Shown in pieces: positions 1-55,808 of a stretch of 64,000 nt of DNA (position 1 is the first letter of the stretch; every line of letters begins with the position of its first letter). The notes under the pieces were generated by a model, which made no database searches, was not told where the DNA came from, and saw only the letters and a program-made list of their open reading frames with translations. This DNA comes from an uncultured virus (IMG/VR IMGVR_UViG_3300027687_000005) (taxonomy: Duplodnaviria; Heunggongvirae; Uroviricota; Caudoviricetes), in IMG/VR virus record IMGVR_UViG_3300027687_000005; one strand, 5' to 3'. The position numbers were made by a program, and so were the translations under genes.

Positions 1-48
1 CTTTCCCTGTTGTTTTCAAATTATTTTGCATCTGGTGCAAATTAACTG

Positions 49-77
49 TTTACAATCCAGCCACTGGCGGTTACTTA
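49..77 (+). promoter_or_regulatory. putative host sigma70 early promoter
   Basis: TTTACA(49-54)-N17-TACTTA(72-77) upstream of the first ORFs, with an AT-rich upstream region. Confidence 0.45.
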
Positions 78-115
78 CTGGCAACAACTTCAATCAGCCT
101 TGAAAGGGCCACATC

Positions 116-202
116 ATGAAAACCTTTATAAATATACTCACAGCCGCAACAATGGTATCAACCCTTGCAGTTCTTGCCGGGGCCCTTGCCGCTAATCTTT
201 AA
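116..202 (+). CDS. 28-aa hydrophobic peptide
   Basis: Own translation MKTFINILTAATMVSTLAVLAGALAANL; preceded by GAAAGGG. Confidence 0.45.
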   Translation: MKTFINILTAATMVSTLAVLAGALAANL

Positions 203-251
203 TCAAAATCTAACTATCAACAGTATCAAACCAAATATGAGGGAATACATC

Positions 252-926
252 ATGACAATCCAATTCAAAACACTGAAAGCCGCGCAGGAAGTCACTGGCA
301 AGCTTTCCAATCGCAATTCCAAAATGCCGGGTACTACCTTTGCGATATCTGCAAAGCATTGCGGTGTTGGCGGCAAGCTAGTCAAAGTCAAAGGCTCGGT
401 GTGTGATAGATGTTATGCAATCAAGCTACAAAACCTGCGCCCTAGCGTTGATAAGGGCTGGACCGCGAACTATCTCGCAGCAACTCAAAGCATCTCAAAT
501 AATCCTGCAAACTGGGCGGCTGGTGCAGCTTTCCAAATCAAGCGCATGGCGGTTAAATCTGGTGAGATGTATCATCGTTGGTTTGATAGCGGAGACCTAG
601 CTTCGGTTGATATGTTGAATGCAATTTGCATGGCGGCTGAATTGACACCAGAGGTCAGCCATTGGCTTCCTACCCGTGAGGCTAAGATTGTCAAAACCTA
701 CCTAGCTAATGGCGGCAAGGTACCCTGCAATCTTATCATCCGTATCAGCTCAACCATGATTAATGATAAGCCAATTGCAGGCTATGCCAACACCTCAACA
801 GTTCACCGCAAGGATAGCGCACCAGAGGGCCACATCTGCCCTGCTAGCCACCAAGGTGGCAACTGTGGTGACTGCAGGGCTTGCTGGACCCATAGCGTTC
901 CTAACGTCTCCTATCCGCTGCACTGA
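252..926 (+). CDS. GP88-family Cys-rich phage protein
   Basis: Motifs C..GSVCDRCYA, RWFDSGD, HWLPTRE, CPA..CGDCRACW. Start placed at ATG 252 after GAGGG. Confidence 0.75.
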   Translation: MTIQFKTLKAAQEVTGKLSNRNSKMPGTTFAISAKHCGVGGKLVKVKGSVCDRCYAIKLQNLRPSVDKGWTANYLAATQSISNNPANWAAGAAFQIKRMAVKSGEMYHRWFDSGDLASVDMLNAICMAAELTPEVSHWLPTREAKIVKTYLANGGKVPCNLIIRISSTMINDKPIAGYANTSTVHRKDSAPEGHICPASHQGGNCGDCRACWTHSVPNVSYPLH

Positions 927-984
927 GATTTGTATCGGTGACCCTGCCGTTTTCGGTAGGGCATCCCATGCAAATCCCTGCATG
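927..984 (+). ncRNA. structured intergenic RNA element, copy 1 (RNase III-site-like)
   Basis: GATTTGTAT/ATGCAAATC outer stem, CCCTGCCG-TTTT-CGGTAGGG inner stem, overlapping CATGCA-N6-TGCATG hairpin; repeated at 1917-1971. Confidence 0.6.
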
Positions 985-1004
985 TTTTGAGAGGACTAAT
1001 TAAG

Positions 1005-1196
1005 ATGACAATCGGCGGATATAAATTAAAAGATGAGGGCTTTGGCTTATCAGTGACTGAGCACGAAAGCGGGTGGTCTATGTGGTTGCAAGGTGATGAC
1101 GCGGACCAATTTCGTAATGAGTGGGAGGCTTGGCAAGAGAAGCGCGACAACAACTTCCGCAAGTTTTTAAATCATCACGAATGGACATTGGCATAA
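1005..1196 (+). CDS. hypothetical early protein
   Basis: ATG after GAGAGGA; stop overlaps the next start. Confidence 0.7.
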   Translation: MTIGGYKLKDEGFGLSVTEHESGWSMWLQGDDADQFRNEWEAWQEKRDNNFRKFLNHHEWTLA

Positions 1197-1384
1197 TGGA
1201 AAACCAACTCACACAAGGCGAATTGATCGCCAACATCACCGCCAACGGATTAACCTTTCTTGTCTGTATCGTTCAGGAAACCGGGGAAGATTTCATGGGT
1301 CAGCAGGTCCTAAAATCCCGCAGCTATTCCACCATGAAAACAGCCCAACGTGGGGCCATTAAGATGCTGGGGGCTTTGTCATGA
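1196..1384 (+). CDS. hypothetical early protein
   Basis: TAATG overlap with the upstream gene; begins MENQLTQGEL. Confidence 0.65.
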   Translation: MENQLTQGELIANITANGLTFLVCIVQETGEDFMGQQVLKSRSYSTMKTAQRGAIKMLGALS

Positions 1385-1587
1385 ATACCGCTGAAAAACT
1401 GAATGTAATTGCAGAGGCTGGGAGCACCTACCATATCCGCAAATATAGCGGCGAATGGGTGCCTGTAGTTATCGTAGGAAGTAAGGTTTTCACTGGGGTG
1501 CATTGCAGCACCTCAGGGGGTGCCATGGCCTCTGCAATCAATCTTTGCGCCACTCGCAGTGCTGCACTTTTGGAGGTGACCCAATGA
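1381..1587 (+). CDS. hypothetical early protein
   Basis: ATGA overlaps at both ends. Confidence 0.65.
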   Translation: MNTAEKLNVIAEAGSTYHIRKYSGEWVPVVIVGSKVFTGVHCSTSGGAMASAINLCATRSAALLEVTQ

Positions 1588-1730
1588 AATATGTAACTTG
1601 GAACCAATTCAGCTTGACCTCACTTAAACAGGCGGAACGGCACAAACAAGCACTGGAAGCGGATGGGTGGAGATTGGTCCACTCTGCCGTGGGGTGCTTG
1701 ACCTACTCGAAAGCTGAGGTGACCCAATGA
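1584..1730 (+). CDS. hypothetical early protein
   Basis: Strong RBS GGAGGTG, ATGA overlap; begins MKYVTWNQ. Confidence 0.7.
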   Translation: MKYVTWNQFSLTSLKQAERHKQALEADGWRLVHSAVGCLTYSKAEVTQ

Positions 1731-1918
1731 GCTATCAACCCACACCACTGAAAGACCTGCCGCATGGGGCATACTTCAAGCGCAAACCTGAGGCCCGAAA
1801 GCTGTTCATTCGGGATGCTTACTGCAGGAGCCTGCGGAAATACTTTTGCATGCCTGAAGATGATGTGTGGGGCGGTGGCATGCCCCTCAGAGGCTCGACG
1901 ATTGTATATGTCAATTGA
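1727..1918 (+). CDS. hypothetical early protein
   Basis: RBS GAGGTG, ATGA overlap. Confidence 0.7.
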   Translation: MSYQPTPLKDLPHGAYFKRKPEARKLFIRDAYCRSLRKYFCMPEDDVWGGGMPLRGSTIVYVN

Positions 1919-1971
1919 TTGTATCGGTGTGCAGCATTGAGGTGCTGCCATCCCATGCAATTCCCTGCATG
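1917..1971 (+). ncRNA. structured intergenic RNA element, copy 2
   Basis: Same flanks as 927-984 with a different inner stem, GCAGCAT-TGAG-GTGCTGC. Confidence 0.6.
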
Positions 1972-1986
1972 TGAGAAGGAGAACTA

Positions 1987-2157
1987 ATGGCTAATAATTC
2001 AGCAATGCTAGCAGGCCTCGAGCAGTACCTGCAGGATATGGGCAAACTTTTGCCTACTGAAGATGATTTAAAACTTGAAAACCTGCAGCGAACCAATACG
2101 CTGCAAGTGGGCTACTACAACGATCCAAGAGACAGCAAAGGAGATGTAAGCTTTTAA
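1987..2157 (+). CDS. 56-aa protein ending GYYNDPRDSKGDVSF; probable homolog of 62706..62888
   Basis: RBS AAGGAG; own translation; similar C-terminus to the right-arm ORF. Confidence 0.75.
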   Translation: MANNSAMLAGLEQYLQDMGKLLPTEDDLKLENLQRTNTLQVGYYNDPRDSKGDVSF

Positions 2158-2217
2158 CTTATAACACGGTGAAGCTATTACCGTTTAATATTCAATATAA
2201 AATAGGAAATTCAAACA

Positions 2218-2433
2218 ATGAGAATAGATTTTAGCATTGATAGTCAGTGGGTAAACAGGAGAGACAATGCAGCGGCACGAGGCGGCTGCAGGCACAAAGC
2301 AATTCACTGGTCCATCGATAGGCAAGGGCCACCATCCAGAAAATCAATTGCACTACTTTCCACAGAAATAGAGGATGGTGTGATATCTGATGGCAGTGTC
2401 TATGCCACAGGCTTCGGAGGTAATTGCCAATGA
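2218..2433 (+). CDS. hypothetical protein
   Basis: 71-aa ORF with AGGA upstream. Confidence 0.45.
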   Translation: MRIDFSIDSQWVNRRDNAAARGGCRHKAIHWSIDRQGPPSRKSIALLSTEIEDGVISDGSVYATGFGGNCQ

Positions 2434-2506
2434 AGTTCGCAAAAACAGAGGTGCATTTAGACATCTTTTTTGACGAAGCCAAACGGCCCTGCAATATCCG
2501 CAAAAC

Positions 2507-2570
2507 TAAATGTGACCTACAGGCCCAGCGGTCACATTTATTGACTTTTAACTTCTATCGGCTTCATATA
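2507..2570 (+). promoter_or_regulatory. operator-like inverted repeat plus sigma70-like promoter of the regulator-integrase operon
   Basis: Perfect 11-bp IR TAAATGTGACC-N12-GGTCACATTTA directly abutting TTGACT(2541-2546)-N17/18-TCATAT/CATATA. Confidence 0.55.
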
Positions 2571-2619
2571 TCGGCAGAGATAATTAAGCCATATCCAAGA
2601 ACAGAGAGACACCTACCAA

Positions 2620-2949
2620 ATGGACCAGATGCAAAAATTAAAAGATGTGATGGATGAATTTACTAAATTTCACCCTAAAATCACAGCGAATATGATTGCA
2701 GTATTTTCGTATGTTGCGGCAAGACCTGAAGAGGTCATCCAAACCCGCGATTTGCCGGGTGCATTGAACCTGCCCCAGACAACCATCAATCGCCTAATAC
2801 GCACGATGGCTGACAGGTCATATATCCGCGAAGAGGGCTTCAAGCTTCTACGCCAAACTACAGACCTAGTTGATGAACGGCAGCGGATTGTTGAACTAAC
2901 ACCAGCAGGCCGCACCTTGGCTAATAAATTGAGAGGTATAATGAAATGA
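2620..2949 (+). CDS. MarR-like winged-helix transcriptional regulator
   Basis: HTH LNLPQTTINRLIRTM and wing D..DERQRIVELTPAG; sits just upstream of the integrase. Confidence 0.8.
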   Translation: MDQMQKLKDVMDEFTKFHPKITANMIAVFSYVAARPEEVIQTRDLPGALNLPQTTINRLIRTMADRSYIREEGFKLLRQTTDLVDERQRIVELTPAGRTLANKLRGIMK

Positions 2950-4010
2950 AGAACACAACAAAACTACACAAAGGAATAACGCAGCGCGGGGATAAATACC
3001 GCGTTAGCGTCATGGTCAGCGGGAAGCGCAAGACAGCTACCTGCAAGACCTTAGAGGAAGCTTCCGAAACTATGCAGCAAATGAAACTGGGGCTGTTCGA
3101 TGCCACCAGTGGTGAGTTTGATGTGTGGAATTTAGATACTGCTTGGGAGAAATATGTGGACTACCGCACAGTAAAAAACCCAGACGCCTCTGCAAATGGA
3201 AAGAAGTTCACTTGGTATGGCAAGATGATCTTAAATCACTTTGGCCCTGCAATTTCTCTGGACGATATAACACCGATCCAGACTGCTTCGTTCTATGATT
3301 TTCTAACTATTGAAAGGAAGTATTCGGCAAGTGCTGTAAATTATTTAGGAACCCTGCTGCACCAGATGCAACTGTTTGCAGTTAGGCGGGGGCGTAAGCG
3401 CATCGCACCTGTCAGGATGGAGGGCTGCAGGATTACTCAGGGGCGCATCAGGTTCCTTAGTGACCTCGAGGAAGCTAAGGTACTCGACTGGTACGACAGG
3501 ACAGGACGGGGCCATTCTGGTGACCTTATACGTTTCTACATTGATACAGGTCTGCGCAAGACTGAAGGTCTGCGCTTAAAGTTCACAGATGTGGATATGA
3601 AGACCGGGCGCATCACGATCTGGAAGACTAAGAACGGTAAGCCGCGCACCATCAAAATGACCGGGCGTGTGAAGAATATTCTTGAGCGCCTCGCTGTTGG
3701 TCGTAACGATTTTGATACCCTAGTTTTCCAAGGCAACAAAGAGAAGCGACTGTATCGTGATTGGTGGAAAATGCGTGATGCAATCGGCTTGGGTGATGAT
3801 GCTCAGTTCGTCCTGCACATGCTTCGCCACACCTGTGCAACCAGACTGCTTGGAGCGGGTGTTGATATCCGCAGCGCAATGGAGTGGCTTGGGCATTCCA
3901 GCATAGAGCAGACCCAGAGGTACGCACACTTCATACCCTCCAAATCTGACGATGCTGCTGACGCGCTTGACAGATTGGCAGCAGAAAAGTTAGGAGGTGT
4001 CATGGCATGA
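2946..4010 (+). CDS. int: tyrosine recombinase / phage integrase
   Basis: Catalytic motifs TGLRKTE, KTKNG, HMLRH, LGHS and Y in QRYAH. Confidence 0.95.
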   Translation: MKNTTKLHKGITQRGDKYRVSVMVSGKRKTATCKTLEEASETMQQMKLGLFDATSGEFDVWNLDTAWEKYVDYRTVKNPDASANGKKFTWYGKMILNHFGPAISLDDITPIQTASFYDFLTIERKYSASAVNYLGTLLHQMQLFAVRRGRKRIAPVRMEGCRITQGRIRFLSDLEEAKVLDWYDRTGRGHSGDLIRFYIDTGLRKTEGLRLKFTDVDMKTGRITIWKTKNGKPRTIKMTGRVKNILERLAVGRNDFDTLVFQGNKEKRLYRDWWKMRDAIGLGDDAQFVLHMLRHTCATRLLGAGVDIRSAMEWLGHSSIEQTQRYAHFIPSKSDDAADALDRLAAEKLGGVMA

Positions 4011-4300
4011 CCACCGGGTACATTTGTGGTACGTTTCTGGTACAGGGTTGCACCTTATAGCTGAATAACTAAAAGAAAAGAATAACTTACAAATTATGCA
4101 ACAGAAACCTCCACTATTACCACTCAATTTGTTAACAGTTAGAACAGCGCAGAGGCCTTATTCTAAAGGCTTCCTGCGTTGTTTTTCGTACCCGATGTTT
4201 CTAACCGTTAACGGCAAGAAACCTGTGGGTATCTGCACCGCATTTGCACCATTGCACCCAGCGGCTGCACCCCTCTCCAAAACCTCAATCAAATCAACGG
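4011..4300. other. probable attP region
   Basis: Non-coding gap right after int, with GGTAC x3 (4018-4043) and TGCACC x4 (4234-4271) short direct repeats flanking an AT-rich centre and a long hairpin. Confidence 0.5.
4143..4187 (+). terminator. long hairpin followed by a T-run (terminator or RNase III site)
   Basis: AACAGCGCAG-AGGCCTT pairs with AAGGCTT-C-CTGCGTTGTT, ending in TTTTT. Confidence 0.45.
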
Positions 4301-4304
4301 CTTC

Positions 4305-4322
4305 AATTGGGTTGCACCATAG
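4305..4322 (+). promoter_or_regulatory. putative phage RNAP promoter
   Basis: AATTGGGTTGCACCATAG; repeat family resembling the SP6 promoter ATTTAGGTGACACTATAG. Confidence 0.6.
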
Positions 4323-4360
4323 CTCCCAAAGCCCCTCCAACACCTAAAGGATAGAACAGA

Positions 4361-6853
4361 ATGACAATCGATCTGTATTCCACGCAAGAAGCGTTAGAGA
4401 AACAAGCAAGGACACTGACCAAGACCCGCTTTCAAAACATGCTCACTGAGAACGTCCAGAGGGGTAACGAATCATCAACATTCTACGGCTCACCATTGAT
4501 GAAGAGAGCTATTGAACCTGTAGCCCAGCGCATCGTCGAAGTGATTACTGAAGCTGAGACAGGCAAAGCAGGAAGTAAGCTTTCATCTGTTAAGTTCATG
4601 AAACTTCTGGAGCCTAACGTGATTGCTTTCTTCACTGCTAAAACAATCATTGATAAGCTCACCAGTAAGACCAACAAGCTGCAGACTGTCGCAAACAATA
4701 TCGGCAAGAACTTAGAGGATGAACTGCGGTACACCTCGTTTGAAGAGCAGCACCCATGGCTGTTTAAAAAGCTACTCAACGAGATTGATACGACCAGACA
4801 GCGCAAACGTCAGAACCTTGTCGCTGCCTACAATCGCTATTGCGAACAGTGGGTATCGTGGGGGGATGATGCTCGTATTCACCTTGGCATGAAACTGATT
4901 GAGATTTTTGTATCACGAACCGGGTTCGCTGAGTTGGCTACCCGTCCACTAGGTGGCAAGAGGATTGAGAAAGTTCTTGTAGCCACACAGAGTGTCATCG
5001 ACTTCCTGAACAACAACAAGGAAGCGGCTGAGATGTTATCGCCTGTGTATCTCCCGATGGTTGTACCACCTAATGACTGGACCGGGCCGAGGGGTGGTGG
5101 GTATCTTACACATCACACCCCTCCACTGACTTTAATCAAGACCTCGAACAGGAACTACCTAGAGGAACTTGAGGGCCTTTCAGAACAGATGGCACCTGTC
5201 TACCAAGCCATCAACCACATCCAGCGCACACCTTGGCAGGTTAATACGTTTGTCATGGTCACACTCCAGATGATGAATGAGCGTGGCTTGGCTATTGCTG
5301 GCCTGAGTGCAGCGGAAGATGAACCACTACCACCTCGCACCATTCCTGAAGGTTTAAAGAAGGAGGATATGACTGAGCATCAGCTGCGTGAGTTCAAAAC
5401 GTGGAAGCAACGCTCAACTAAAATTTATGAAGAAAATATTAGGCTGCGTTCCAAGCGGCTAATGGTTACTCGCATCCGCAGATTGGCAGAGCAGTTCTCA
5501 GTCTACAATGCTATCTACTTCGTACACACAGCCGATTTCAGGGGCCGTTTGTACCCTGCCAGCTCCTACCTAACCCCTCAGGGCAACTCGCTCTCTAAGG
5601 GCCTCCTGAAGTTCTCTGATGGCAAGCCATTGGGCACCAACGAGGCAGCGGTAGAGCTAGCGATACACGGTGCAAATACTTTCGGGTATGACAAGGCATC
5701 AATGCAGGAGCGTGTGGATTGGGTGGTAGAAAACCAAGACCGTATCCTACAGGCTGGCACCAGTCCTATGTCTGACTTGTGGTGGGCCAAAGAAGCTGAT
5801 GACCCTTGGTCATTCTTAGCATTCTGCGAGGAGTGGGTCGGATACAATACTGATGGTTATGACCATGTCTCGTTCATTGCAATTGCAAAGGATGGTGCGT
5901 GTAATGGCCTACAACACTTGAGTGCTGCTCTACTGGATGAGGTAGGTGGTGAGCAGGTCAATCTAATACCATCAGACAGACCAGCTGACATCTATCAGAC
6001 GGTCATCGACAAGACGATCATCAAGGTGAAGCAGGACCTAAACAGTAATGCCTATGTTCTTGATACCTATGCAGTGGCTGACTTGGCTAAACGATGGCTT
6101 GAGTATGGCATGACCAGAAAGACTGCCAAGAGGTGTACGATGACGCGGGTCTATGGCAGTACGTTGTTCTCTGCCCGAGCATTCGTGCAAGAGTTCTTGA
6201 CTGAGACAGACCTCAAACGAAGAGAGGAAAATGTTGGGTATGTATCCCCTCTACACGAGATGGAGTTCCCAGCATCGATCTACTTAGCCCAGCACGTTTG
6301 GACATCAATCAATGAAACTGTAGTTGCGGCGAAAACCGCTATGGATTGGCTGCAAGACTGTGCCAAACAGCTGGCTAAGAAGAACCTACCGATCATGTGG
6401 ACTACTCTCGACGGTCTGCCTGTGATGCAGAACTATCCTGACATGACTAAGCGTAGGTTGAAGACAAAGTTTGGTGACAAGCTAATCTATCTGACGGTTC
6501 AAGAAGCTAACAAGAACAAGCTGGATCGTAGGCGTCAGGGTGCAGGAGTATCTCCAAATCATACTCATTCTTCTGATTCCTGCCACCTTCGCATGACTGT
6601 AAACTTAGCTGCAGATAATGGGGTCACCCACTTCGCTATGATACATGACAGCTTTGGTTGCCATGCGTCCGACATCGAGATGCTGGGGGCCTGTACTCGT
6701 GAGGCATTCTTGTGGATGTACCATGAGAATAATCCTCTGCAGTCATTCAAGGACGAATGCGAAGTGATGTTGGGTGCAGAGTTAAAACCCCTGCCCCCGA
6801 TGGGTGACTTGGATATCACTCAAGTTCTCCAATCTGAATTCTTCTTCAGTTAA
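4361..6853 (+). CDS. T7-like single-subunit RNA polymerase
   Basis: DFRGRLY, DGACNGLQH, RKTAKRCTMTRVYG, IHDSF and C-terminal FFFS. Confidence 0.98.
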   Translation: MTIDLYSTQEALEKQARTLTKTRFQNMLTENVQRGNESSTFYGSPLMKRAIEPVAQRIVEVITEAETGKAGSKLSSVKFMKLLEPNVIAFFTAKTIIDKLTSKTNKLQTVANNIGKNLEDELRYTSFEEQHPWLFKKLLNEIDTTRQRKRQNLVAAYNRYCEQWVSWGDDARIHLGMKLIEIFVSRTGFAELATRPLGGKRIEKVLVATQSVIDFLNNNKEAAEMLSPVYLPMVVPPNDWTGPRGGGYLTHHTPPLTLIKTSNRNYLEELEGLSEQMAPVYQAINHIQRTPWQVNTFVMVTLQMMNERGLAIAGLSAAEDEPLPPRTIPEGLKKEDMTEHQLREFKTWKQRSTKIYEENIRLRSKRLMVTRIRRLAEQFSVYNAIYFVHTADFRGRLYPASSYLTPQGNSLSKGLLKFSDGKPLGTNEAAVELAIHGANTFGYDKASMQERVDWVVENQDRILQAGTSPMSDLWWAKEADDPWSFLAFCEEWVGYNTDGYDHVSFIAIAKDGACNGLQHLSAALLDEVGGEQVNLIPSDRPADIYQTVIDKTIIKVKQDLNSNAYVLDTYAVADLAKRWLEYGMTRKTAKRCTMTRVYGSTLFSARAFVQEFLTETDLKRREENVGYVSPLHEMEFPASIYLAQHVWTSINETVVAAKTAMDWLQDCAKQLAKKNLPIMWTTLDGLPVMQNYPDMTKRRLKTKFGDKLIYLTVQEANKNKLDRRRQGAGVSPNHTHSSDSCHLRMTVNLAADNGVTHFAMIHDSFGCHASDIEMLGACTREAFLWMYHENNPLQSFKDECEVMLGAELKPLPPMGDLDITQVLQSEFFFS

Positions 6854-6890
6854 TCTAACTGTTAACGGTTAAAGGTTAGGAGCCGTTAAC

Positions 6891-6908
6891 GATTAGGTTG
6901 CACCATAG
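6891..6908 (+). promoter_or_regulatory. putative phage RNAP promoter (middle genes)
   Basis: GATTAGGTTGCACCATAG in the gap after the RNAP gene. Confidence 0.7.
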
Positions 6909-6934
6909 CTCTACAGAACCGAAAGGCACCGGAA

Positions 6935-7060
6935 ATGACTAACGAAACGCTCATCAACATCGCCGAATACTACAAGCGAAGCGGAGTTCCCGTGCCTGTA
7001 GACATTCAAGCCCGTCTCATTGCGGCTGGCATCGACGTTCAAAAATACCAACACGTTTAA
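6935..7060 (+). CDS. 41-aa hypothetical protein
   Basis: Own translation MTNETLINIAEYYKRSGVPVPVDIQARLIAAGIDVQKYQHV; GAAAGG upstream. Confidence 0.7.
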   Translation: MTNETLINIAEYYKRSGVPVPVDIQARLIAAGIDVQKYQHV

Positions 7061-7070
7061 AGGAATAATC

Positions 7071-7670
7071 ATGACTGATTATGTGACACCACATGGCATT
7101 GCAGTATGGCCTAAGCTCAACACTCCAGATTTCAAATGGAATCCAGATGGTGAGTACACTGTTAAGTTAAAAATCTCAGCAGAGGAGAGCCAGCCACTAA
7201 TCAAACAACTTGAAGAGCTGCGCGATACCTACCTTGCCACTGCAATCAAGGAGGACCCAAAGGTTGCTAAATATGGCATGGCCCCTCTTTATGAAGAGGA
7301 AGCTGACGACCAAGACAACCTCACTGGCTTCAACATCTTCAAGTTTAAACAGAAGGCTAAAATCACAACTCGCAAAGGTGAGACTATTGAGAAGCGAGTT
7401 GCTATTTACGACAGCAACAAGACGCCAACGACTTCGACAGTAACTGGTGGCTCTACGCTGCGTGTTGCTGGTAGTGTATTTGGGTACGCCATGCCTTCTA
7501 GCAGGATGGTAGGTCTATCACTTCGACCTGAAGCTGTGCAGATTATCACCCTGGCATCAGCTGGTAATGGTGAGCAAGCTGCAACCATGTTCGATAAGGA
7601 AGATGGCTTCGTTGCTGATAGCTTCGCCAACTTGGAGACAGCTGCGGCTGATGATCTTGCAGACTTCTAA
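7071..7670 (+). CDS. ssb: single-stranded DNA-binding protein (T7 gp2.5-like)
   Basis: TPHGIAVWPKLNTPD..GEY, acidic tail ending in F, RBS AAGGA, synteny. Confidence 0.9.
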   Translation: MTDYVTPHGIAVWPKLNTPDFKWNPDGEYTVKLKISAEESQPLIKQLEELRDTYLATAIKEDPKVAKYGMAPLYEEEADDQDNLTGFNIFKFKQKAKITTRKGETIEKRVAIYDSNKTPTTSTVTGGSTLRVAGSVFGYAMPSSRMVGLSLRPEAVQIITLASAGNGEQAATMFDKEDGFVADSFANLETAAADDLADF

Positions 7671-8076
7671 GCCCAGCAAGGTCAGGGCAAACGCAATAAA
7701 GAATGGTTGGCGGTCGGGGTTAGAAGAAACCCTTGCCGCCGATCTTCGTCTTAAAGGTATCACATACAAATTTGAGCCAACCACTTTGAAGTACAATGTA
7801 CCCGCAAGAGTGGCACGCTATACCCCCGACTTCTGGGTAACCACCAGAACAGGCAAGGTCATAGTGGTGGAAAGTAAGGGACGATTCTTGACTGCCAATC
7901 GACAGCTAATGCTGCTGGTTAAAGCCCAACATCCCAATCTTGAAATTCGCATGGTCTTCAGCAGGTCCAAGGAAACAATTTCTAAAACCAGCAGCACTAC
8001 ATACGCAATGTGGTGTGAAAAGCACGGCTTTCAGTACGCTGATAAATTAGTCCCACAGGAGTGGTTAGATGAATAA
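7651..8076 (+). CDS. endonuclease I (T7 gp3-like Holliday junction resolvase)
   Basis: RSGLEE, YTPDF, ESKG, IRMVF, WCEKHGF; start uncertain. Confidence 0.92.
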   Translation: MILQTSKPSKVRANAIKNGWRSGLEETLAADLRLKGITYKFEPTTLKYNVPARVARYTPDFWVTTRTGKVIVVESKGRFLTANRQLMLLVKAQHPNLEIRMVFSRSKETISKTSSTTYAMWCEKHGFQYADKLVPQEWLDE

Positions 8077-11006: not shown

Positions 11007-12842
11007 ATGAAACGTATTCTATTTGATATTGAAACCGATGGCCTATTGCCAGACCTGACTAAGGTCCACAGCCTCGTACTGTTGGACATGGACACTGAAG
11101 AAGAACTAAGCTGTGCAGATCAAAAGGGCTACACATCTATCGCGGATGGCATGTCATACCTCAAGAGTGCAGAGCTTTTGGCGGGACATAATATTCAGGG
11201 CTTCGACTTCCCTGCCCTACATAAACTGTTCGGCTTTGAGTACAGTGGTGAGATACACGATACGTTAATTATGTCTCGGCTAGTCTGGTCGGACCTGAAG
11301 AACAATGACTTTGAATACATCAAGAAACCCAGAGGTGCTAACTTTCCCCGACAACTCATAGGCTCCCATTCCCTCAAGGCGTGGGGGTTACGTTTGGGTA
11401 ACCACAAGGATGGCTACAGTGACGGGTGGGACGAATGGTCAGAGGCAATGCAAACGTATTGCGTTCAGGACTGTCGAGCTAACCTAACATTCTACAAGCG
11501 CATCATGTCCAAGAAGCCCAGCGCACAGAGCGTCAAGCTAGAGCATGACTTCGCTCATGTCATCCGCAAACAGGAAGCGCATGGCTTTCACTTTGATGAG
11601 GTGAAGGCACACAAACTCTTGGCAACTTTACAGGGACGCCAAGCGGAGCTGAACGATGAGCTGCAGGTTGCCTTCAAGCCGTGGGAAATCAGGGAACCCT
11701 TTACACCCAAGGTCAACAACAAGGCCCGAGGGTATGTGAAAGGACAGCTGACTTACAAGGTCAAGGAAGTTGTATTTAATCCCGCAAGCAGGGACCACAT
11801 AGCAGACAGATTGCAAACGCTAGGCTGGGTCGCGAAAGCACACACAGAGCAGGGCAAGGCCAAGGTAGATGAGACTGTACTCGCAGGCTTAGACTATCCT
11901 GAAGCTGCGCTACTCAATGAGTATTTGATGCTGAACAAAAGGATTGGGCAGTTAGCTGTAGGTCAAAATGCTTGGCTGAAGAAAGTACAGAATGGAAAGA
12001 TACATGGTCAAGTCAATACAAATGGTGCGTCCACTGGGCGCTGTACGCACAACAGGCCTAACGTAGCTCAGACACCTAGCGTCAATGCTCCGTATGGCAC
12101 TCAGTGTCGTGAGTTGTTCTACGCACCAGAGGGTTACTCTTTAGTTGGAGCAGATTTATCCGGCTTAGAATTGAGATGCCTCGCCCACATGATGGCGAAG
12201 TACGATGGAGGTTCCTACACAAATGTTGTCCTCAATGGAGATGTGCATTCGGTCAATCAGAAGGCCGCTGGGCTACCTGACAGGTCCAGCTCAAAGGTAT
12301 TCATATATGGATTCCTGTATGGGGCAGGCGCTGCCAAGATTGGTTCCATCGTTGGTGGTACTGAGAAGGAAGGCAGGGCGTTAATCAATAAGTTCATGAA
12401 AGCTACCCCTGCTCTTAGGGAGCTTCGGATAGCTGTGCAGGAAACCATCTATGGTAGGTGGATCAAGGATTCAAACGGAAACCGCATAAAGATTAAAGAA
12501 GGTAGAGGGCACTTACTTGGACTGGATGGCAGGAAACTCTCCATCCGCAGCCCTCATTCAGCTTTGAATGTACTGCTGCAATCCGCAGGGGCGCTGCTAG
12601 CCAAGCAGGCCACAGTATTCCTGTACGAAAATCTAACCATTAAAGGTTACAAATGGGGCGAAGACTATGCCCAAGTTGCACACGTTCATGACGAAGTGCA
12701 GCTCATAGCTAGAAAGGAAATAGCTGAAGATGTCGGAAGAGAAGCAGTTAAATCTTTTCAACTCGCCGGGGAACACTTTAACTTCAGATGCCCTATCACA
12801 GGAGAGTTCAAGATCGGTAACAACTGGGCAGACACGCACTAA
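11007..12842 (+). CDS. family A DNA polymerase (T7 gp5-like)
   Basis: Exonuclease FDIET, motif A DLSGLELR, motif B KVFIYGFLYG, motif C VHDE. Confidence 0.97.
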   Translation: MKRILFDIETDGLLPDLTKVHSLVLLDMDTEEELSCADQKGYTSIADGMSYLKSAELLAGHNIQGFDFPALHKLFGFEYSGEIHDTLIMSRLVWSDLKNNDFEYIKKPRGANFPRQLIGSHSLKAWGLRLGNHKDGYSDGWDEWSEAMQTYCVQDCRANLTFYKRIMSKKPSAQSVKLEHDFAHVIRKQEAHGFHFDEVKAHKLLATLQGRQAELNDELQVAFKPWEIREPFTPKVNNKARGYVKGQLTYKVKEVVFNPASRDHIADRLQTLGWVAKAHTEQGKAKVDETVLAGLDYPEAALLNEYLMLNKRIGQLAVGQNAWLKKVQNGKIHGQVNTNGASTGRCTHNRPNVAQTPSVNAPYGTQCRELFYAPEGYSLVGADLSGLELRCLAHMMAKYDGGSYTNVVLNGDVHSVNQKAAGLPDRSSSKVFIYGFLYGAGAAKIGSIVGGTEKEGRALINKFMKATPALRELRIAVQETIYGRWIKDSNGNRIKIKEGRGHLLGLDGRKLSIRSPHSALNVLLQSAGALLAKQATVFLYENLTIKGYKWGEDYAQVAHVHDEVQLIARKEIAEDVGREAVKSFQLAGEHFNFRCPITGEFKIGNNWADTH

Positions 12843-12861: not shown

Positions 12862-13125
12862 ATGCGAGAGTTTACGCGCAGCCGAAAGAAACAGCTTGTC
12901 GCCTACATGGGCGGCAAGTGTGAGAGATGCTTGAAGGTGTATCACCCTAATGTTTACGACTTCCATCACCACGACCACACCCTGAAAGTGTTCGGGGTAT
13001 CCCAAGCTAACATGCAGAGGTCTTGGCATAACTTAGTAAGGGAGACAGATAAGTGTCACCTCCTCTGCTCGAACTGTCACCGCGAAGTTCACACCTACCA
13101 CCCCGCAAAGTTTATTAAAATCTAA
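12862..13125 (+). CDS. HNH endonuclease
   Basis: CERC..DFHH..C.LLCSNCH; the frame is open back to 12730, so the start is uncertain. Confidence 0.8.
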   Translation: MREFTRSRKKQLVAYMGGKCERCLKVYHPNVYDFHHHDHTLKVFGVSQANMQRSWHNLVRETDKCHLLCSNCHREVHTYHPAKFIKI

Positions 13126-13141
13126 CCGTTAAGGAATAGAA

Positions 13142-17286: not shown

Positions 17287-17970
17287 ATGCGAAAGAAATC
17301 CACTTACAAACGTAAGCAGGAGGATGTTGAGGTTGTGCGCGGTCCCCGTGTGCAGCCTCTGCTACCCATGAACCCTGCTCAAAAGAACTACATGGACTGT
17401 ATCTCTCAGTACCCTCAGACATTTGTCACAGGGCCTGCAGGTACAGGTAAGACCTACATTGCTGCAGCCGTAGCTGCGGATATGTTCCATGCCCACAAGA
17501 TACACAAGATAATCTTAACTCGCCCTAACATCCCTGCAGGTAAGTCTCTTGGTTTCTTTGCGGGGACTATCGAGGATAAGATTGCCCCATGGGTAGTCCC
17601 CTTGACTGAGGTCTTAGAGGCACGACTAGGTAAAGGTAGGTTCGAGGTTGCCCGTAAGCGTGGTGACATTGAGATTGTACCTTTTGAAGTTATGCGTGGA
17701 CGATCTTTCAACAATGCCTTCGTCATCCTAGATGAAGCACAGAACCTAACACCCCATGAGATGAAGATGTTCCTGACCCGTATCGGTGAGGATAGTAAGG
17801 TCATCGTCAATGGGGATGTAACTCAGCATGACCTATCAGGCACCAGTGGCCTGCAGGTTGCTATAGACCTTATGCACAAACACAACATCCCTGCAGCTCA
17901 CTGCAACTTCACTCATGATGACGTAGTTCGCTCTGGCATCTGTGCCATGTGGACCCGCGCCTTTGATTAG
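17287..17970 (+). CDS. phoH: PhoH-like ATPase
   Basis: GPAGTGKT, MRGRSF, LDEAQN, TRIG, GDVTQ.D, DVVRS. Confidence 0.95.
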   Translation: MRKKSTYKRKQEDVEVVRGPRVQPLLPMNPAQKNYMDCISQYPQTFVTGPAGTGKTYIAAAVAADMFHAHKIHKIILTRPNIPAGKSLGFFAGTIEDKIAPWVVPLTEVLEARLGKGRFEVARKRGDIEIVPFEVMRGRSFNNAFVILDEAQNLTPHEMKMFLTRIGEDSKVIVNGDVTQHDLSGTSGLQVAIDLMHKHNIPAAHCNFTHDDVVRSGICAMWTRAFD

Positions 17971-17982
17971 GTTGCACCTTAG
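17965..17982 (+). promoter_or_regulatory. putative phage RNAP late promoter
   Basis: GATTAGGTTGCACCTTAG directly before the structural operon. Confidence 0.7.
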
Positions 17983-32313: not shown

Positions 32314-35142
32314 ATGTCTTCCATTATTAACTATGTCGCTGACGGATCGACGAACTCGTTTCAAATCCCGTTCACCTACATAAGCCAATCGCATGTGGTA
32401 GTCACCGTAGATGGTGTTAGCGTAACGCCTACTTTCATTAACGATACTCAGCTTAGTGTATCCCCCACACCAGCCGCAGGCCTCATAGTAATCGTAAAGC
32501 GAGTTACGCCTGTAGTAGCACTTGTAGACTTTACAGATGGCTCAACTCTATTTGAGGCTGACCTAGACCTCGCTCACCAGCAGAACAGGTTAATCTCCGA
32601 GGAAAGCCGTGACCGTGCAGATAATGCCATCACGACTTTGAATGCTAATATCACGAACATTAACACAGTAGCTGCTAGCAACACTGCGGTTAATACAGTG
32701 TCCAGCAATATAGCCAGCGTCAATGATGTATCAACCAACATGGCTGAAGTGCTACTTGCTGATACTAATGCTGCTACAGCTACGACTAAAGCTGGAGAGG
32801 CTTCTGCATCTGCTAGCACTGCATCTACTCAGGCTGGCATTTCAACGACTAAAGCTGGTGAGAGTGCTGCAAGTGCTGCAGCTGCCCTAGCTTCTAAGAA
32901 TGCAGCGGCGACTTCTGAAACGAATGCTGCGGGTTCTGCAGGTACTGCAACAACCCAAGCGGGACTTGCAACATCCAACGGTGCTTCTCAGGTTTCTCTG
33001 GCTACGGCTCAGGTTTCACTTGCAACGACTAAAGCCTCGGAAGCTTCTGCAAGTGCCTCTACAGCTACTACACAAGCTGGTATAGCAACAACTCAAGCGT
33101 CTACAGCTACTACACAGGCTGGCATTTCTACAACCCAAGCTGGTATCTCAACTACAAAGGCTTCTGAAGCATCTTCAAGTGCTGCGGCTGCTTTAGGTAG
33201 CCAGAATGCTGCCTCTTCTAGTGCATCTTCTGCTTCTACAAGTGCTGGTACAGCTACTACTCAGGCTGGGATTTCTACGACTAAAGCGGGTGAAGCGGCA
33301 ACATCTGCGTCTAACGCTTCCACATCTGCCTCAACAGCGACAACCCAAGCTGGCATATCAACAACCAAGGCTGGCGAAGCTGCTGCATCTGAGACGGCTG
33401 CGGCTGGGTCTGCGTCCACTGCAACAACCCAAGCTGGTATTGCCACAACCAAAGCTAGTGAATCTGCTGCATCTGCATCAGCTAGTGCAACATCTGCATC
33501 ATCCGCACAGGCATCTAAAGACGCTGCCCTTGCTGCATTAGATTCATTTGACGACAGGTATTTAGGCCAGAAGTCTGCTGACCCAACTGTAGACAATGAC
33601 GGTAACGCTTTAGTAGCTGGAGCTTTGTACTTCAATACGACTGACGATGTCATGAAGGTGTATGAAGGTTCTAGCTGGGTTGCTGCTTATGCTTCCCTGT
33701 CAGGCGCTCTGCTTGCTGCAAACAATCTGTCTGATTTAGCAAGTGCATCTGCTGGTCGTACTAACCTCGGCCTTGGAACTAGCAACAGCCCTACGTTCGC
33801 TGGTCTAACTACAACTGCTGATGTGTCCTTCGGCGACAACGACAAGGCCATCTTCGGTGCTGGGTCTGACCTACAGATTTACCATGATGGTACTCATAGC
33901 CGCATAAATGATACTGGAACAGGGTTTTTAGTTATTGCTGCTAGTCGTTTACAAGTTAACAATGCTGCTAATAATGCAGAGATGATTGTTGCTGTTGAGG
34001 GCGCACAAGTAGAATTGTTTCATAACGCCGCAATGAAATTGAACACCACAGCCACTGGCATTGACGTAACAGGCACAGTGACGGCTGATGGGCTGACTGT
34101 GGATACTACAACCCCCTTTATGTCTTTTAAGGAGTCTGGCGCAACTAAACTTTTTATTGGTGAAAGTAGTGCAGTTGGTGGTGGTGCAGGTTATTATGAT
34201 TTTTATGCTGTTACAGGTTTAGGACAAAGGTTCTTTACAAACTCCTCAGAACGTATGCGTATCGACTCGTCAGGCAATGTTGGCATAAACATGACTGCCC
34301 CTAACTCCGGCCTACATGTAAATGGAAGCATTACAAGTAGTAACTTAGGGCAAGACGCATCAACCTCTAAAGGTCTTTCCTTACAGGGTTACGGAGACAC
34401 TTCTTACATAAACATGAGTGGTGCTGGCAATCTAATCTTCCGTATGGGTTCAACCTTTGCAGAACGTATGCGCGTCGACTCATCGGGCAACCTGCTTGTG
34501 GGTAAGACGAGTGCTGCTTACAATACGGCTGGTTTTCAAATTCAGTCTAATGGTATTGCTGGAGCAACTACTTCCGTTGGTAGGCCTTTCTATGTAAACA
34601 GAAAAAGCACTGATGGTGCACTTTTTGACCTATATAAAGACGGCACATCTGTGGGCAGCTGGATGTCACGGGCTGGTGTTGTTTCGACAATAATACTTGA
34701 CCCTCGTTCTGGTGGTGGCGGTCTCTCTGGTGGCGGTGCAGCATTGTACCCAACCAATAATGTGGGCGCACTTTCTAACGGAGCTTTAACACTTGGTGAT
34801 GCGTCATATAAGTTCAATGACGGCCACTTCTCAGGAACAGTAAACGCAGCTAACTTCAACACCACCTCAGACGCCACACTCAAGACCAACGTAGAGACGC
34901 TCACAGGCTCTCTGGATGCCGTTAAGTCCCTGCGTGGTGTATCATTTGATTGGCTAGAGAATGGCAACTCAGAGGTCGGTGTAATCGCTCAGGAGGTGGA
35001 AGCAGTTCTACCTGATGTAGTCAGCACTAACGCCGAAGGCATTAAGTCAGTGAAGTACGGCAACATGGTCGCTGTTCTCATCGAAGCAATGAAAGAGCAG
35101 CAGCTTCGCATTGAAGCCCTCGAACTTAAACTAGGAGAATAA
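32314..35142 (+). CDS. tail fibre with T7 gp17-like N-terminus and C-terminal S74 intramolecular chaperone
   Basis: [20 protein letters not shown]...DL; Ala/Ser/Thr repeats; [24 protein letters not shown]. Confidence 0.92.
32760..33540 (+). repeat. coding heptad-type repeats ([16 protein letters not shown]) in the fibre shaft
   Basis: Recurrent T.QAGI(S/A)TTKA(G/S)E units. Confidence 0.85.
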
Positions 35143-38949: not shown

Positions 38950-41040
38950 ATGGCTAAACGATTTGCAGGTTTCACTCCTGAACAGCTAGGTAAGATTATA
39001 CCTGAGATGCAGGGTATGCAGGCTGATGAACAGGCGCTCTTCTTGGCATCAAAACCAGGAGCCTCTGCATCTGAGCGCATAGCCAAGATGGCTGAAGCTG
39101 CACAGAAGCGCATTGGTATGGCTTATGGTGGCATGGTAAAGAAGCAGGGTTATGCTGTTGGTGGTACTGTAGATCCACAAGCTAAGCTAGATGCATCTCA
39201 GCAAGGTATAGTTACAGCAAACCAAACCGTACAGGATGCTATTGCTGCACAAGCAGCAGACCCAGGGAATGCAAACCTTGTGGAAGCCGTAACAAAAGCA
39301 CAAGCATCTGTAGGTACTGCACGTCAAAAAGCTGCATCAGCATATAGTGACTTCAAGACTACAGAAATACCCACTCCTGCTGAGTTTACTGCTAGTGCAA
39401 CACAAGACCCTAGTTCCATTACAAAGACAGCTGATGTAGTTAACATAACAGATGCAGATAAAAAAGCAGGCCAGATTACCACAGGAACAGGTCAAATCAC
39501 TGGTGGCGCACCAGAGGTAACTACTGAAACTGCTGCAACTGCAGGCGGTGTAGCTGCCCCAACTCCACAGGCTGCAGTAACATACACACCTCTCTCTGTA
39601 GAGGCTACAACACAGGATGTACTTGACCGCCTTGAGGCTGCTACAGGCAAGCCCAGTGATGAAGCTCTCGTAGACGCACAGTCAATGTCACCACAGGATC
39701 TAGCTCAGCTAGGCCTCAGTGCCGCACAGCTTTCAGAAGCACAGAGAGTACAGTCTGTTGCTCCACGCACTGTTCAAGCAGGTGAGATGATTGAAGGCTC
39801 CACGGTTGATATGACCCGTGTTAAAGCTGAAACTAACTTTGCTGCTGCTACAGGTGCACCATCTACGGATGCTACTGTACAGGGTCAGCTTACTAGCCTT
39901 ATGGAAGACTTTGAGGGTAACGATCCTCCTGCATGGGCGGCTGGTGCTATGCGTGCTGCTACTGCAACAATGGCTGCACGTGGCTTAGGTGCTTCCTCTA
40001 TGGCAGGGCAGGCTATTGTCCAAGCGGCTATGGAATCAGCAATGCCTATAGCTGTACAGGATGCACAGACATCAGCACAGTTTGAATTGACTAACCTTAG
40101 TAACCGCCAGCAGACAGCTATGTTCGCTGCAGAGAAACGCGCTGAGTTCCTTGGACTAGAGTTCAACCAGAACTTCCAGACACGTGTAGCTAACTCAGCA
40201 AAGATATCAGAGATTGCTAACATTAACTTTACTGCTGAACAACAGGTAGCTCTTGAGAATGCACGTATGGCTCAGTCTGTAGACCTTACTAATCTTACTG
40301 CTGCTAACGCTAAAGTAATGGCAGACGCTGCAGCTATGACACAGATGGATCTCACTAACCTGAACAACCGTCAACAAGCGCAAGTACAGAACGCTAAGTC
40401 ATTCCTAGACATGGACATGCAGAACCTTGCTAATGATCAGCAGACTACAATCTTTAAGACACAAGCTATGACTAATGCATTACTATCTGATCAGGCAGCT
40501 GAGAATGCCTCTAAACAGTTTAATGCTTCAAGTGAAAATCAAACAAACCAGTTCTTCTCTAACTTGTCATCACAGGTATCTATGTTCAATAACGAACAGA
40601 CTAATGCTATGAACAAGTTTAACGCTGGTGAAACTAATGCAGTACTACAGTTTAATGCAGCACAGAAGGCTGCTCGTGATCAGTTTAACTCTAACAACGG
40701 TCTAATTGTAGCACAGGCTAATGCTGCATGGTCACAGGCCACTACAACAGCTGAAACTGCAGCACAGAACCAAGCAAACCGTGATGCAGCTATGACTGAA
40801 AATGAATACACCATGACAGCCTACAATAATGTCATACAAGAAGAGCGTGACTTAATAAGTTACGCATTTAGTGCTGCAGAGGGTAGTGCTGACAGGGATG
40901 TACGTTTGCAGATTGCAGCTATTCAAGCAGAAACTAGCGAAGCTGGAATACAGGCGCAGGTTGATACAGCACGAGGTCAAGGTACAGGTAAGCTCCTAGC
41001 TATCTTTGCAGACAAGGCCTTGGAGTGGGCCTTCAGCTAA
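38950..41040 (+). CDS. putative internal virion / ejection protein
   Basis: Ala/Gln/Asn-rich helical repeats (QFN, NLNNRQQ); position in the structural arm. Confidence 0.7.
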   Translation: MAKRFAGFTPEQLGKIIPEMQGMQADEQALFLASKPGASASERIAKMAEAAQKRIGMAYGGMVKKQGYAVGGTVDPQAKLDASQQGIVTANQTVQDAIAAQAADPGNANLVEAVTKAQASVGTARQKAASAYSDFKTTEIPTPAEFTASATQDPSSITKTADVVNITDADKKAGQITTGTGQITGGAPEVTTETAATAGGVAAPTPQAAVTYTPLSVEATTQDVLDRLEAATGKPSDEALVDAQSMSPQDLAQLGLSAAQLSEAQRVQSVAPRTVQAGEMIEGSTVDMTRVKAETNFAAATGAPSTDATVQGQLTSLMEDFEGNDPPAWAAGAMRAATATMAARGLGASSMAGQAIVQAAMESAMPIAVQDAQTSAQFELTNLSNRQQTAMFAAEKRAEFLGLEFNQNFQTRVANSAKISEIANINFTAEQQVALENARMAQSVDLTNLTAANAKVMADAAAMTQMDLTNLNNRQQAQVQNAKSFLDMDMQNLANDQQTTIFKTQAMTNALLSDQAAENASKQFNASSENQTNQFFSNLSSQVSMFNNEQTNAMNKFNAGETNAVLQFNAAQKAARDQFNSNNGLIVAQANAAWSQATTTAETAAQNQANRDAAMTENEYTMTAYNNVIQEERDLISYAFSAAEGSADRDVRLQIAAIQAETSEAGIQAQVDTARGQGTGKLLAIFADKALEWAFS

Positions 41041-41088
41041 TTGGTTAATAATAGCAGATACATTTGGGTAACAACAGGTATAATAACA

Positions 41089-42545: not shown

Positions 42546-42554
42546 GGTATTACA

Positions 42555-43124: not shown

Positions 43125-43126
43125 TC

Positions 43127-46012: not shown

Positions 46013-46029
46013 AGCCAATCGGAGCTACA

Positions 46030-54064: not shown

Positions 54065-54095
54065 TTCATTTCCTCATAAAATAGTTTCATCATAC

Positions 54096-55807: not shown

Positions 55808-55808
55808 C

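Follow-up and report, generated by a model that had tools for sequence, protein, structure and literature searches.

Two copies of an intercistronic hairpin in a marine podovirus belong to a structured RNA family with a second fold and are candidate processing sites

Introduction

What is the role of a hairpin that stands twice between early genes of a marine phage, and whose 3′ strand has a second potential partner a few nucleotides downstream? The question is raised by a stretch of 64,000 nucleotides from an uncultured virus (IMG/VR record IMGVR_UViG_3300027687_000005), called here the window, in which two copies of such an element, W1 and W2, occur at 927–984 and 1917–1971. The original prediction, made from the sequence alone, had described them as a repeated structured RNA with two mutually exclusive folds, and had read it either as an RNase III site of the T7 kind or as an undescribed switch or non-coding RNA motif. 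We find that W1 and W2 are members of a widespread family of structured RNAs that marine phages carry between cistrons of their early, host-takeover regions. What is observed is the hairpin with its covariation, strand, intergenic position and spread, and the co-variation of its third strand. As to function, we put the probability that the element is a host RNase III-type processing site, whose downstream product would refold into a 5′-terminal hairpin, at roughly 45%, that is, somewhat below even odds.

The two copies and their folds

The coordinates and letters of both copies are as first described, and each copy does lie between a stop codon (TGA 924–926 for W1, TGA 1916–1918 for W2) and the next ribosome-binding site. 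Their features are as follows.

927–976, + strand: main hairpin of W1; lower stem 927–935/968–976, C936/C967 mismatch, GGUG 937–940 paired with CA.CC 962–966, U964 bulged, A941 unpaired, apical stem 942–949/954–961, loop UUUU
967–984, + strand: alternative hairpin of W1, CAUGCA 967–972/UGCAUG 979–984 with loop AAUCCC, which excludes the lower stem of the main hairpin
989–995, + strand: Shine-Dalgarno sequence GAGAGGA downstream of W1, followed by ATG 1005–1007
1917–1962, + strand: main hairpin of W2; lower stem 1917–1924/1955–1962, C1925/C1954 mismatch, GGUG 1926–1929 paired with CA.CC 1949–1953, U1930 unpaired, apical stem 1931–1937/1942–1948, loop UGAG
1954–1971, + strand: alternative hairpin of W2, CAUGCA 1954–1959/UGCAUG 1966–1971 with loop AUUCCC
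1976–1981, + strand: Shine-Dalgarno sequence AAGGAG downstream of W2, followed by ATG 1987–1989

The lower stem, of 9 bp in W1 and 8 bp in W2, begins at or within the upstream TGA, and the whole W1 helix can be written as 9 + 4 + 8 bp with a C–C mismatch and a bulged U. The apical stems have 7–8 bp and a tetraloop, and their letters are entirely different in the two copies; as predicted, the inner hairpins (CCCUGCCG/CGGUAGGG vs GCAGCAU/GUGCUGC) are unlike in sequence yet both paired. The Shine-Dalgarno sequence and the ATG lie 5–21 nt past UGCAUG in both. The fold of W1 has a free energy of −31.8 kcal/mol (z −4.35), and none of 200 shuffles was as stable.

A 23-base motif on the 3′ side occurs exactly twice in the window, at 962–984 and 1949–1971, and not once in 100 dinucleotide-preserving shuffles, while the 5′ 13-mer by itself does not reach significance (with up to 2 mismatches allowed, 3 matches vs 1.25 expected, equalled in 13 of 100 shuffles). 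A covariance model, R1, was built from 31 aligned relatives (alignment A1) and a structure written for them. In the window it finds W2 at 1911–1965 (64.1 bits, E 1.7e-17) and W1 at 922–978 (50.7 bits, E 2.5e-13); the third-best match reaches just 10.4 bits (E 0.79), so the 64 kb hold only these two copies. The observation of a twice-repeated intercistronic hairpin on the + strand is therefore confirmed.

A family in marine phages

A search by pattern and by covariance model, of which the original prediction had suggested the latter, led to 82 distinct copies in IMG/VR. When a downstream GCATG was required, the pattern scan returned 31 stretches, 12 of them real by reading. With the downstream word optional it returned 108, and 36 of the 42 distinct hairpin-filtered candidates were real, these 42 including the loci from CRP phages (below) and those of the GCATG-requiring scan. 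A scan for copies in which column 54 of the alignment is not A gave 45 stretches, nearly all real. R1 was then run over 70 viral loci with flanks of up to 8 kb, giving 101 matches, from which the 82 distinct copies, on IMG/VR contigs, were obtained.

Who carries the element? The nearest named relatives of the window phage are the Roseobacter phages CRP-114, CRP-227 and CRP-361, whose RNA polymerase is about 76% identical to its own. Each has two copies, in the same places as in the window: copy B is flanked by homologues of the 63-aa and 56-aa genes that flank W2 (listed below), and the three phages differ in the genes that follow copy A. Copy A of CRP-361 is divergent and scores 19 bits by R1. 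Ten carrier viral genomes of 37–53 kb, eight of them with terminal repeats, hold 1–3 copies each (with a rated completeness of 85% for one and of 99% or more for the other nine), and a T7-type RNA polymerase is encoded in one of these ten complete or near-complete genomes. R1 found no copy in CRP-125, CRP-171 or CRP-113, which are T7-like roseophages from strain FZCC0023, the isolation host of CRP-114 too, nor in pelagiphage HTVC031P or in bases 1–8000 of T7. Sequencing runs that contain the window's early region come from marine or seawater metagenomes and from one lake sample.

In bacterial and archaeal genomes, the pattern with the optional downstream word returned at least 120 stretches, and among the matches listed one is real, on a contig of a Rhodobacterales metagenome-assembled genome (L164). 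R1 found one copy in 151 genomes of one Rhodobacterales family, a search in which 37 first-pass candidates were scored per genome, so that weak copies may escape it. This copy lies at about 7988–8044 of locus L268 (genome G025, contig 20, 78000–97000), next to two gene fragments, one of 329 aa, matching just the N-terminal third of the family of phage RNA polymerases, and one of 156 aa from an integrase. The truncated T7-type polymerase and the integrase fragment mark a decayed T7-like prophage remnant. A single copy among 151 host genomes, and that one in a prophage remnant, is in keeping with a phage element that makes use of a common host factor. The known or likely hosts include Rhodobacterales.

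The genes that flank the element belong to early and anti-defence functions, with anti-restriction proteins, DNA methyltransferases and GP88-like proteins among them, and many are without a family: a PHROG match of any kind was found for 22 of the 50 neighbours scanned. In six G+C-rich loci (L164, L282, L300, L318, L322 and L329), we observed an extra small hairpin 5–30 nt past GCAUG and before the ribosome-binding site, of the type GGGC-AAUGAA-GCCC or CCGG-AUGCGAA-CCGG, which the window's copies do not have.

Covariation, strand and conserved shape

It had been proposed that structure, beyond sequence, is conserved, and the alignments bear this out. In the 31 distinct copies of A1, 91.9% of the cells pair vs 70.0% after shuffling, and the covariation score of 0.555 (shuffle mean 0.158) was reached by none of 500 shuffles. 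Both sides vary in 10 of the 19 pairs, and sliding the 3′ partner by 1–3 columns lowers the pairing to 36–40%. The larger alignment A2 (79 distinct rows) is fitted by the model, hence biased towards the structure; in it 92.2% of the cells pair vs 68.1% shuffled, the covariation score is 0.583 (shuffle mean 0.157, again reached by 0 of 500 shuffles), and 14 of the 19 pairs vary on both sides.

The pair at column 12 of A2 tells the strand: it is U–G in 41 rows, C–G in 34 and U–A in 3. Read from the opposite strand, the U–G rows would turn into A–C mismatches, so the structure is that of the + strand transcript.

The conserved shape is a helix of about 21 bp interrupted by a conserved mismatch and a bulge. 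Column 15, opposite C49, is C, U or A and never G. AUCGGUG and AUCCCAUGC look nearly invariant in part because the retrieval patterns fixed those letters; even so, core pairs fixed in the patterns also covary in A2, from U–A to C–G in 4 rows and from G–C to A–U in 2. Copy A of CRP-361 has changed core letters and retains 9 bp, the C–C mismatch, 2 bp, a 1-nt bulge on the 3′ side and a long upper stem. The two conserved blocks stand 18–25 nt apart, and the spacer between them covaries as a stem.

Placement is conserved as well. In 67 of 87 distinct full-length copies, a reading frame that is open over 40 codons or more closes at the foot of the stem (model positions +1 to +9), compared with 101 of 1740 random positions in the same loci. 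The stop codons at the element are mixed (TGA 50, TAG 13, TAA 10). The next start codon is mostly 20–35 nt past the model match. Past the stem the family consensus is GCAUGACAAC and not a run of U, and after GCAUG it continues with ACAAC, A/C-rich, up to the Shine-Dalgarno sequence.

A third strand and a second fold

The claim of two mutually exclusive folds is backed by stepwise changes of partner in the relatives. GCAUG is present at most 12 nt past the stem in 26 of the 31 copies of A1, for which the pattern did not require it; in one of these 26 (L046), the spacing is too short for a hairpin. Of the 12 copies found by the model only, a partner is present in 7 and absent from 5. Blocking the first 20 nt, or truncating the RNA from its 5′ end, makes the CAUGCA/UGCAUG hairpin the minimum free energy (MFE) fold, at about −6.5 to −8 kcal/mol (about −6.5 to −7.0 kcal/mol in W1), and with the 5′ strand blocked the MFE structure consists of the apical hairpin and this small hairpin. 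The latter starts exactly at C49, the mismatched base of the long fold, and is the MFE fold of an RNA truncated there.

The variants carry the more telling evidence. The three strands (5′, 3′ and downstream) read CCCAU, AUGGG and CCCAUG in L403:7451, CGUAC, GUACG and UGUACG in L366:8642, and CGCAC, GUGCG and CGCAC in L360:1227; in L364:735, GUGC is matched by GCACG 24 nt downstream. The canonical GCAUG would mismatch in the first two, where a change of partner is needed for pairing, and would still pair through a G–U wobble in L360:1227 and L364:735. A scan for variants with C53 changed to G returned 15 stretches, of which 3 are real copies, and none of the three keeps GCAUG: one has CCCAUG downstream, one has CCAUGG at the start codon (L410) and one has nothing. 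A scan for G52-to-A variants returned 7 stretches, none real. The second fold, in which the 3′ strand pairs with the downstream GCAUG, is supported by these changes, which are a small sample of informative variants.

Proposed processing by RNase III

How might a transcript use two folds of this kind? We propose that in the mRNA of the + strand the element would first fold as the irregular hairpin of about 21 bp, with the upstream stop codon at its foot. A host double-strand-specific endoribonuclease, most likely RNase III, would recognise this hairpin and cut at the region of the conserved C–C mismatch and bulged U, as it cuts T7 early mRNA at its intergenic hairpins. This would leave the apical hairpin at the end of the upstream cistron, where it would protect the 3′ terminus. 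The 3′ strand (C-AUGC-R), once released, would find a new partner in the downstream GCAUG. The small hairpin so formed would lie at the new 5′ terminus or close to it, immediately ahead of the A/C-rich spacer and the Shine-Dalgarno sequence, where it might shield the downstream cistron from 5′-end-dependent decay. Cleavage, enzyme, cut site and the protective role of either product are inferred.

A review of RNase III describes mismatches, bulges and loops at target sites as leading to single-strand cleavage, which leaves 3′ hairpins that act as stability determinants, and attributes such a site to the majority of T7 transcripts (PMC3867540). Bacterial mRNA is described as stabilised by 5′-terminal hairpins in a review of mRNA decay (PMC3997798). 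In the present family, the small hairpin begins at C49, which is unpaired in the long fold, and this favours a cut near the mismatch and bulge followed by refolding.

Several points weigh against this proposal. The fold of W2 (−23.1 kcal/mol, z −1.04) was equalled in stability by 28 of 200 shuffles and is unremarkable alone, so our case is built on conservation and covariation. The third strand is missing from 5 of the 31 copies found by pattern and from 5 of the 12 found by the model only, and the refolding step would therefore not be universal. A possible sixth pair in the small hairpin is preserved no more often than expected by chance, only 6 of the 26 copies with A at column 54 being able to form it. 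A protein-binding word repeated three times would give the same three-way co-variation; the 5′ strand, however, often has U where the third strand has C, both pairing with the same G, and this favours pairing over such a word. For an RNase III substrate the core seems unusually constrained in sequence, though the retrieval patterns fixed those letters, and some members have short lower stems and about 14 bp in total (L035, for example), which is short for RNase III. R1 is without a match in T7 bases 1–8000 at E up to 1, which means no sequence kinship with the T7 sites. Lastly, one metatranscriptome run was found that contains 5% of the sampled words, and its single contig, 1483–1754, lies off both elements; contigs of this sort cannot show RNA ends.

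Comparison with known systems

The RNase III sites of T7 mRNA are named R0.3, R0.5, R1, R1.1 and R1.3. The T7 regions 1431–1498, 3098–3173 and 6392–6477 fold to hairpins of similar size to those described here, and in the first two the stops TGA TAG stand at the 5′ foot of the predicted helices, with a Shine-Dalgarno sequence downstream. The likeness to our element is one of architecture. Both are intercistronic in polycistronic early phage mRNA, with the stop codon flush with the foot of a hairpin of about 45–55 nt that is broken by a mismatch or internal loop; in both the next Shine-Dalgarno sequence follows 10–30 nt on, and a genome has several copies, alike in their flanks and unlike in their upper stems. 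There are also differences. No similarity of sequence or model joins the two, the marine family occurs also in phages that lack a T7-type polymerase, and its helix has a 1×1 C–C mismatch and a 1-nt bulge instead of a larger internal loop. The marine element has, in addition, a co-varying third strand that gives a second fold, while cleavage is only putative here. We know of no third-strand refolding feature for the T7 sites.

The RNase III reading of the original prediction accordingly stands as to architecture, which is like that of the T7 intergenic hairpins, and does not stand as to a T7-specific setting, given that a T7-type polymerase is found in one of ten carriers and that the element is lacking from the T7-like CRP-125, CRP-171 and CRP-113. 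Its other reading, if taken to mean a riboswitch-like switch, is unlikely: the element lacks both a junction of several stems and a large unpaired pocket that is conserved, and the ribosome-binding site is free in both folds. With two-state switches and attenuators, the element shares one strand that has two exclusive partners, with co-variation in support of both pairings. It differs from them in having no ligand pocket and no terminator, and in that neither state sequesters the ribosome-binding site.

T4-type phages carry promoter-early stem-loop cassettes, and bacteria have intergenic repeat hairpins that are cut by RNase III. Like these, the present element is a short repeated intergenic stem-loop that flanks small early genes at mosaic boundaries. 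Unlike them, it has no promoter attached and a low copy number, and there is strong selection on its pairing and on its position with respect to stop and start codons.

Has the motif been described before? At the gathering score, no Rfam 15 family matches anywhere in the 64-kb window, in keeping with the suggestion that the motif is new, and at E up to 10 the interval 850–2050 gave 5 weak matches, none over either element. In a full-text literature search, the core words turned up in primers and in an engineered tRNA anticodon arm, and nowhere else. In the paper on CRP phages (PMC11092137), the words promoter, RNase, hairpin and intergenic have 0 occurrences. A catalogue of 2023 (PMC10690425) lists 8,495 unnamed candidate RNAs from IMG/VR intergenic regions; it shares with our work the data source and covariation evidence in viral intergenic regions, and assigns no function to such motifs. 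With at least 80 copies in IMG/VR, the motif may be included among those 8,495 candidates, and six contig numbers tried are absent from supplementary files 3 and 4 of that catalogue. By undescribed we therefore mean only that no named description was found in Rfam or in the literature searched.

Alternative explanations

Since the stop codon lies within the 5′ strand of the lower stem, every terminating ribosome must open that stem. An explanation without cleavage follows this fact: the ribosome would melt the lower stem, GCAUG would catch the freed 3′ strand, and the long hairpin would re-form after release, a toggle or insulator that couples or insulates the translation of the neighbouring cistrons. 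It would keep stop and start close in space, leave the A/C-rich leader and the Shine-Dalgarno sequence free, and block long-range mispairing. The position of the stop at the stem foot in 67 of 87 copies agrees with this, as do the MFE structure obtained with the first 20 nt blocked (the apical hairpin with the CAUGCA/UGCAUG hairpin), the co-variation of the third strand with the 3′ strand, and the behaviour of the element as a portable module that precedes unrelated genes. In addition, two copies that have no separate third strand have the word overlapping the start codon, as GCAUG in L056 and as CCAUGG in L410. On the other hand, in neither W1 nor W2 does either fold hide or expose the Shine-Dalgarno sequence or the start codon, and with the ribosome-binding site free in both folds there is no obvious on/off output. 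A hairpin-flush stop is seen at the T7 intergenic hairpins also, and may merely reflect tight packing; the conserved mismatch and bulge would be left without a role; and the small hairpin (about −6.5 kcal/mol) is weak against a long hairpin of −23 to −32 kcal/mol. We consider this account, the main rival of the processing site, rather unlikely.

Is the irregular helix instead read by a protein? A sequence-specific phage or host protein might recognise AUCGGUG and CAUCCCAUGC, with the element serving as a translational operator, as an antitermination-type RNA acting on RNA polymerase, or as an RNA decoy in an anti-defence region. Nearly invariant core letters at the mismatch and bulge below a freely varying apical stem are the usual look of a protein-recognised RNA, and the anti-restriction and methyltransferase neighbours and the low copy number of 1–3 per genome would suit such a site. 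The invariance of the core, however, is largely due to the search patterns: the copies found by the model only have covarying core pairs, and copy A of CRP-361 swaps the letters and keeps the shape. No neighbour family recurs, the 22 of 50 neighbours that have any family being of many kinds, and the carriers are very different phages, which makes a phage-encoded partner unlikely. A protein site is, on this balance, distinctly unlikely.

More improbable still is that the element is mainly a DNA-level palindromic cassette, mobile or recombination-promoting, that shuffles early modules and of which the RNA hairpin is a by-product. Marine contigs that match the window break or switch at 921 and 930, at the 5′ edge of W1, and at 973, with further switch points in the early region at 1083, 1196 and 1209 in marine DNA runs. 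Natural populations thus have a mosaic early region, one boundary of which falls at the element. Between the two copies stands a cassette of five genes, the CRP phages vary in the genes after copy A, and the spread is patchy, the element being present in CRP-114 and not in CRP-125, CRP-171 or CRP-113 from the same host strain. Recombination at a conserved intergenic sequence would, however, be expected whatever its function, and no target-site duplication or transposase was seen at the element. The strand-specific U–G pairs, an orientation that is always with the genes, the exact placement between stop and Shine-Dalgarno sequence, and compensatory changes that preserve pairing in stems of freely varying letters all point to selection on the transcript.

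A phage polymerase promoter, a host sigma-70 promoter or an intrinsic terminator, to which one might be led by the intergenic location and by the UUUU after the third strand in W1, is very improbable, because another repeat, ATTAGGTTGCACC(A/T)TAG at 4306, 6892 and 17966, has the look and the placement of a promoter, 9 of the 10 carrier genomes are without a T7-type polymerase, both window copies are upstream of the polymerase gene, the blocks are spaced by 18–25 nt with a spacer that covaries as a stem, the sole terminator call at the elements (936–949) misreads the W1 apical stem and its UUUU loop, and the consensus past the stem lacks a U run. A scan for promoters and terminators found no promoter-like site at either element, and its counts over 1–4400 were not above those of shuffles.

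Other candidates were tried and set aside. For a riboswitch, the conserved unpaired positions are limited to the 1×1 mismatch, the 1-nt bulge and one variable base. A selenocysteine or readthrough signal does not agree with the mixed stop codons, nor a CRISPR-repeat mimic with an apical stem that is not conserved. A small self-cleaving ribozyme was rejected, there being no junction or pseudoknot and no match to an Rfam ribozyme, and so was coding conservation, as the loop lengths vary and the stems covary.

Gene neighbourhood and the composition of the window

By its gene content, the window from 1 to about 38,500 on the + strand is a T7-like marine podovirus. The genes around the two copies are these.

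252–926, + strand: GP88-like protein of 224 aa (phrog_1392; PF17338 GP88, E 4.1e-19), whose TGA 924–926 abuts W1
1005–1196, + strand: next gene after W1, 63 aa, no family
1727–1918, + strand: 63-aa open reading frame (ORF) upstream of W2, whose TGA 1916–1918 overlaps the first two bases of W2
1987–2157, + strand: next gene after W2, 56 aa
2620–2949, + strand: MarR-type regulator
2946–4010, + strand: integrase
4361–6853, + strand: single-subunit RNA polymerase

W1 and W2 are both in the early region, upstream of the polymerase gene, and flank a cassette of five genes, 1005–1918. The ORF at 1727–1918 is homologous to the gene that precedes copy B in CRP-114, CRP-227 and CRP-361; used as a query in a search for related loci, its 63-aa protein gave just 5 close relatives. 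Further genes of this first phage are those for replication, ribonucleotide reductase, portal, capsid, tail tube and fibres; its large terminase was not located in the window. The 942-aa tail-fibre gene holds, at 32,779–33,492, a long array of imperfect repeats with spacings that are multiples of 21 nt, in families of 75–84-nt units of 60–75% identity.

Beyond the first phage, the + strand at 38,950–49,416 has ORFs of 696, 961 and 1128 aa without a Pfam or PHROG match, and the − strand at 49,654–63,670 has a second podovirus-like replication set, with DNA polymerase A, a DnaB-like helicase, endonuclease I, ribonucleotide reductase, PhoH and ThyX. It appears that the window is a composite or contains more than one phage genome.

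Two other intergenic repeats were observed. The first, ATT(A/G)GGTTGCACC(A/T)TAG, occurs three times on the + strand (4306–4322, 6892–6908 and 17966–17982), one immediately 5′ of the RNA polymerase gene, one immediately 3′ of it and one ahead of the structural genes. Allowing up to 3 mismatches gives 4 matches vs 0.26 expected, the fourth (− strand, 19493) being weak. From their sequence and placement, these copies look like promoters of the phage's own single-subunit polymerase. The second, AATCTAACCRTTAAMGG, which contains the palindrome CCGTTAACGG, is found at 207–223, 4198–4214, 6852–6868, 6883–6899 (− strand), 12630–12646 and 13119–13135, or 6 matches at up to 3 mismatches vs 0.27 expected. 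A terminator-like hairpin is one possible role; another, given the phage's gene for a MarR-type regulator, is that of an operator.

Implications

Irrespective of mechanism, the element defines a real RNA family, well supported by 82 distinct copies that covary strongly, which is missing from Rfam 15, and for which a processing mechanism is plausible. In marine viral contigs, it can be used as a sequence marker of early regions and of mosaic boundaries. The feature that separates it from known processing hairpins is the co-varying third strand.

If cleavage is true, the paradigm of T7 early-mRNA processing would reach the abundant marine phages of Rhodobacterales, beyond the T7-like group, and would gain a conserved design feature, a third strand that re-pairs once the first fold is lost. 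Such an element would also be a compact, host-portable part with which to separate and stabilise cistrons in alphaproteobacteria.

It is tempting to go one step further and suggest, as a tentative and possible generalisation that we hold for less probable than not, a portable three-strand intercistronic cassette common to unrelated marine phages, in which a long hairpin is presented to a host nuclease, or opened by the terminating ribosome, and its 3′ strand is then handed to a downstream copy of the 5′ strand. No three-strand device of this kind is described in Rfam or in the literature searched. If it is true, each early cistron would gain protected ends of its own and an exposed A/C-rich leader, and the element would be a natural mRNA insulator that works by a structural hand-over.

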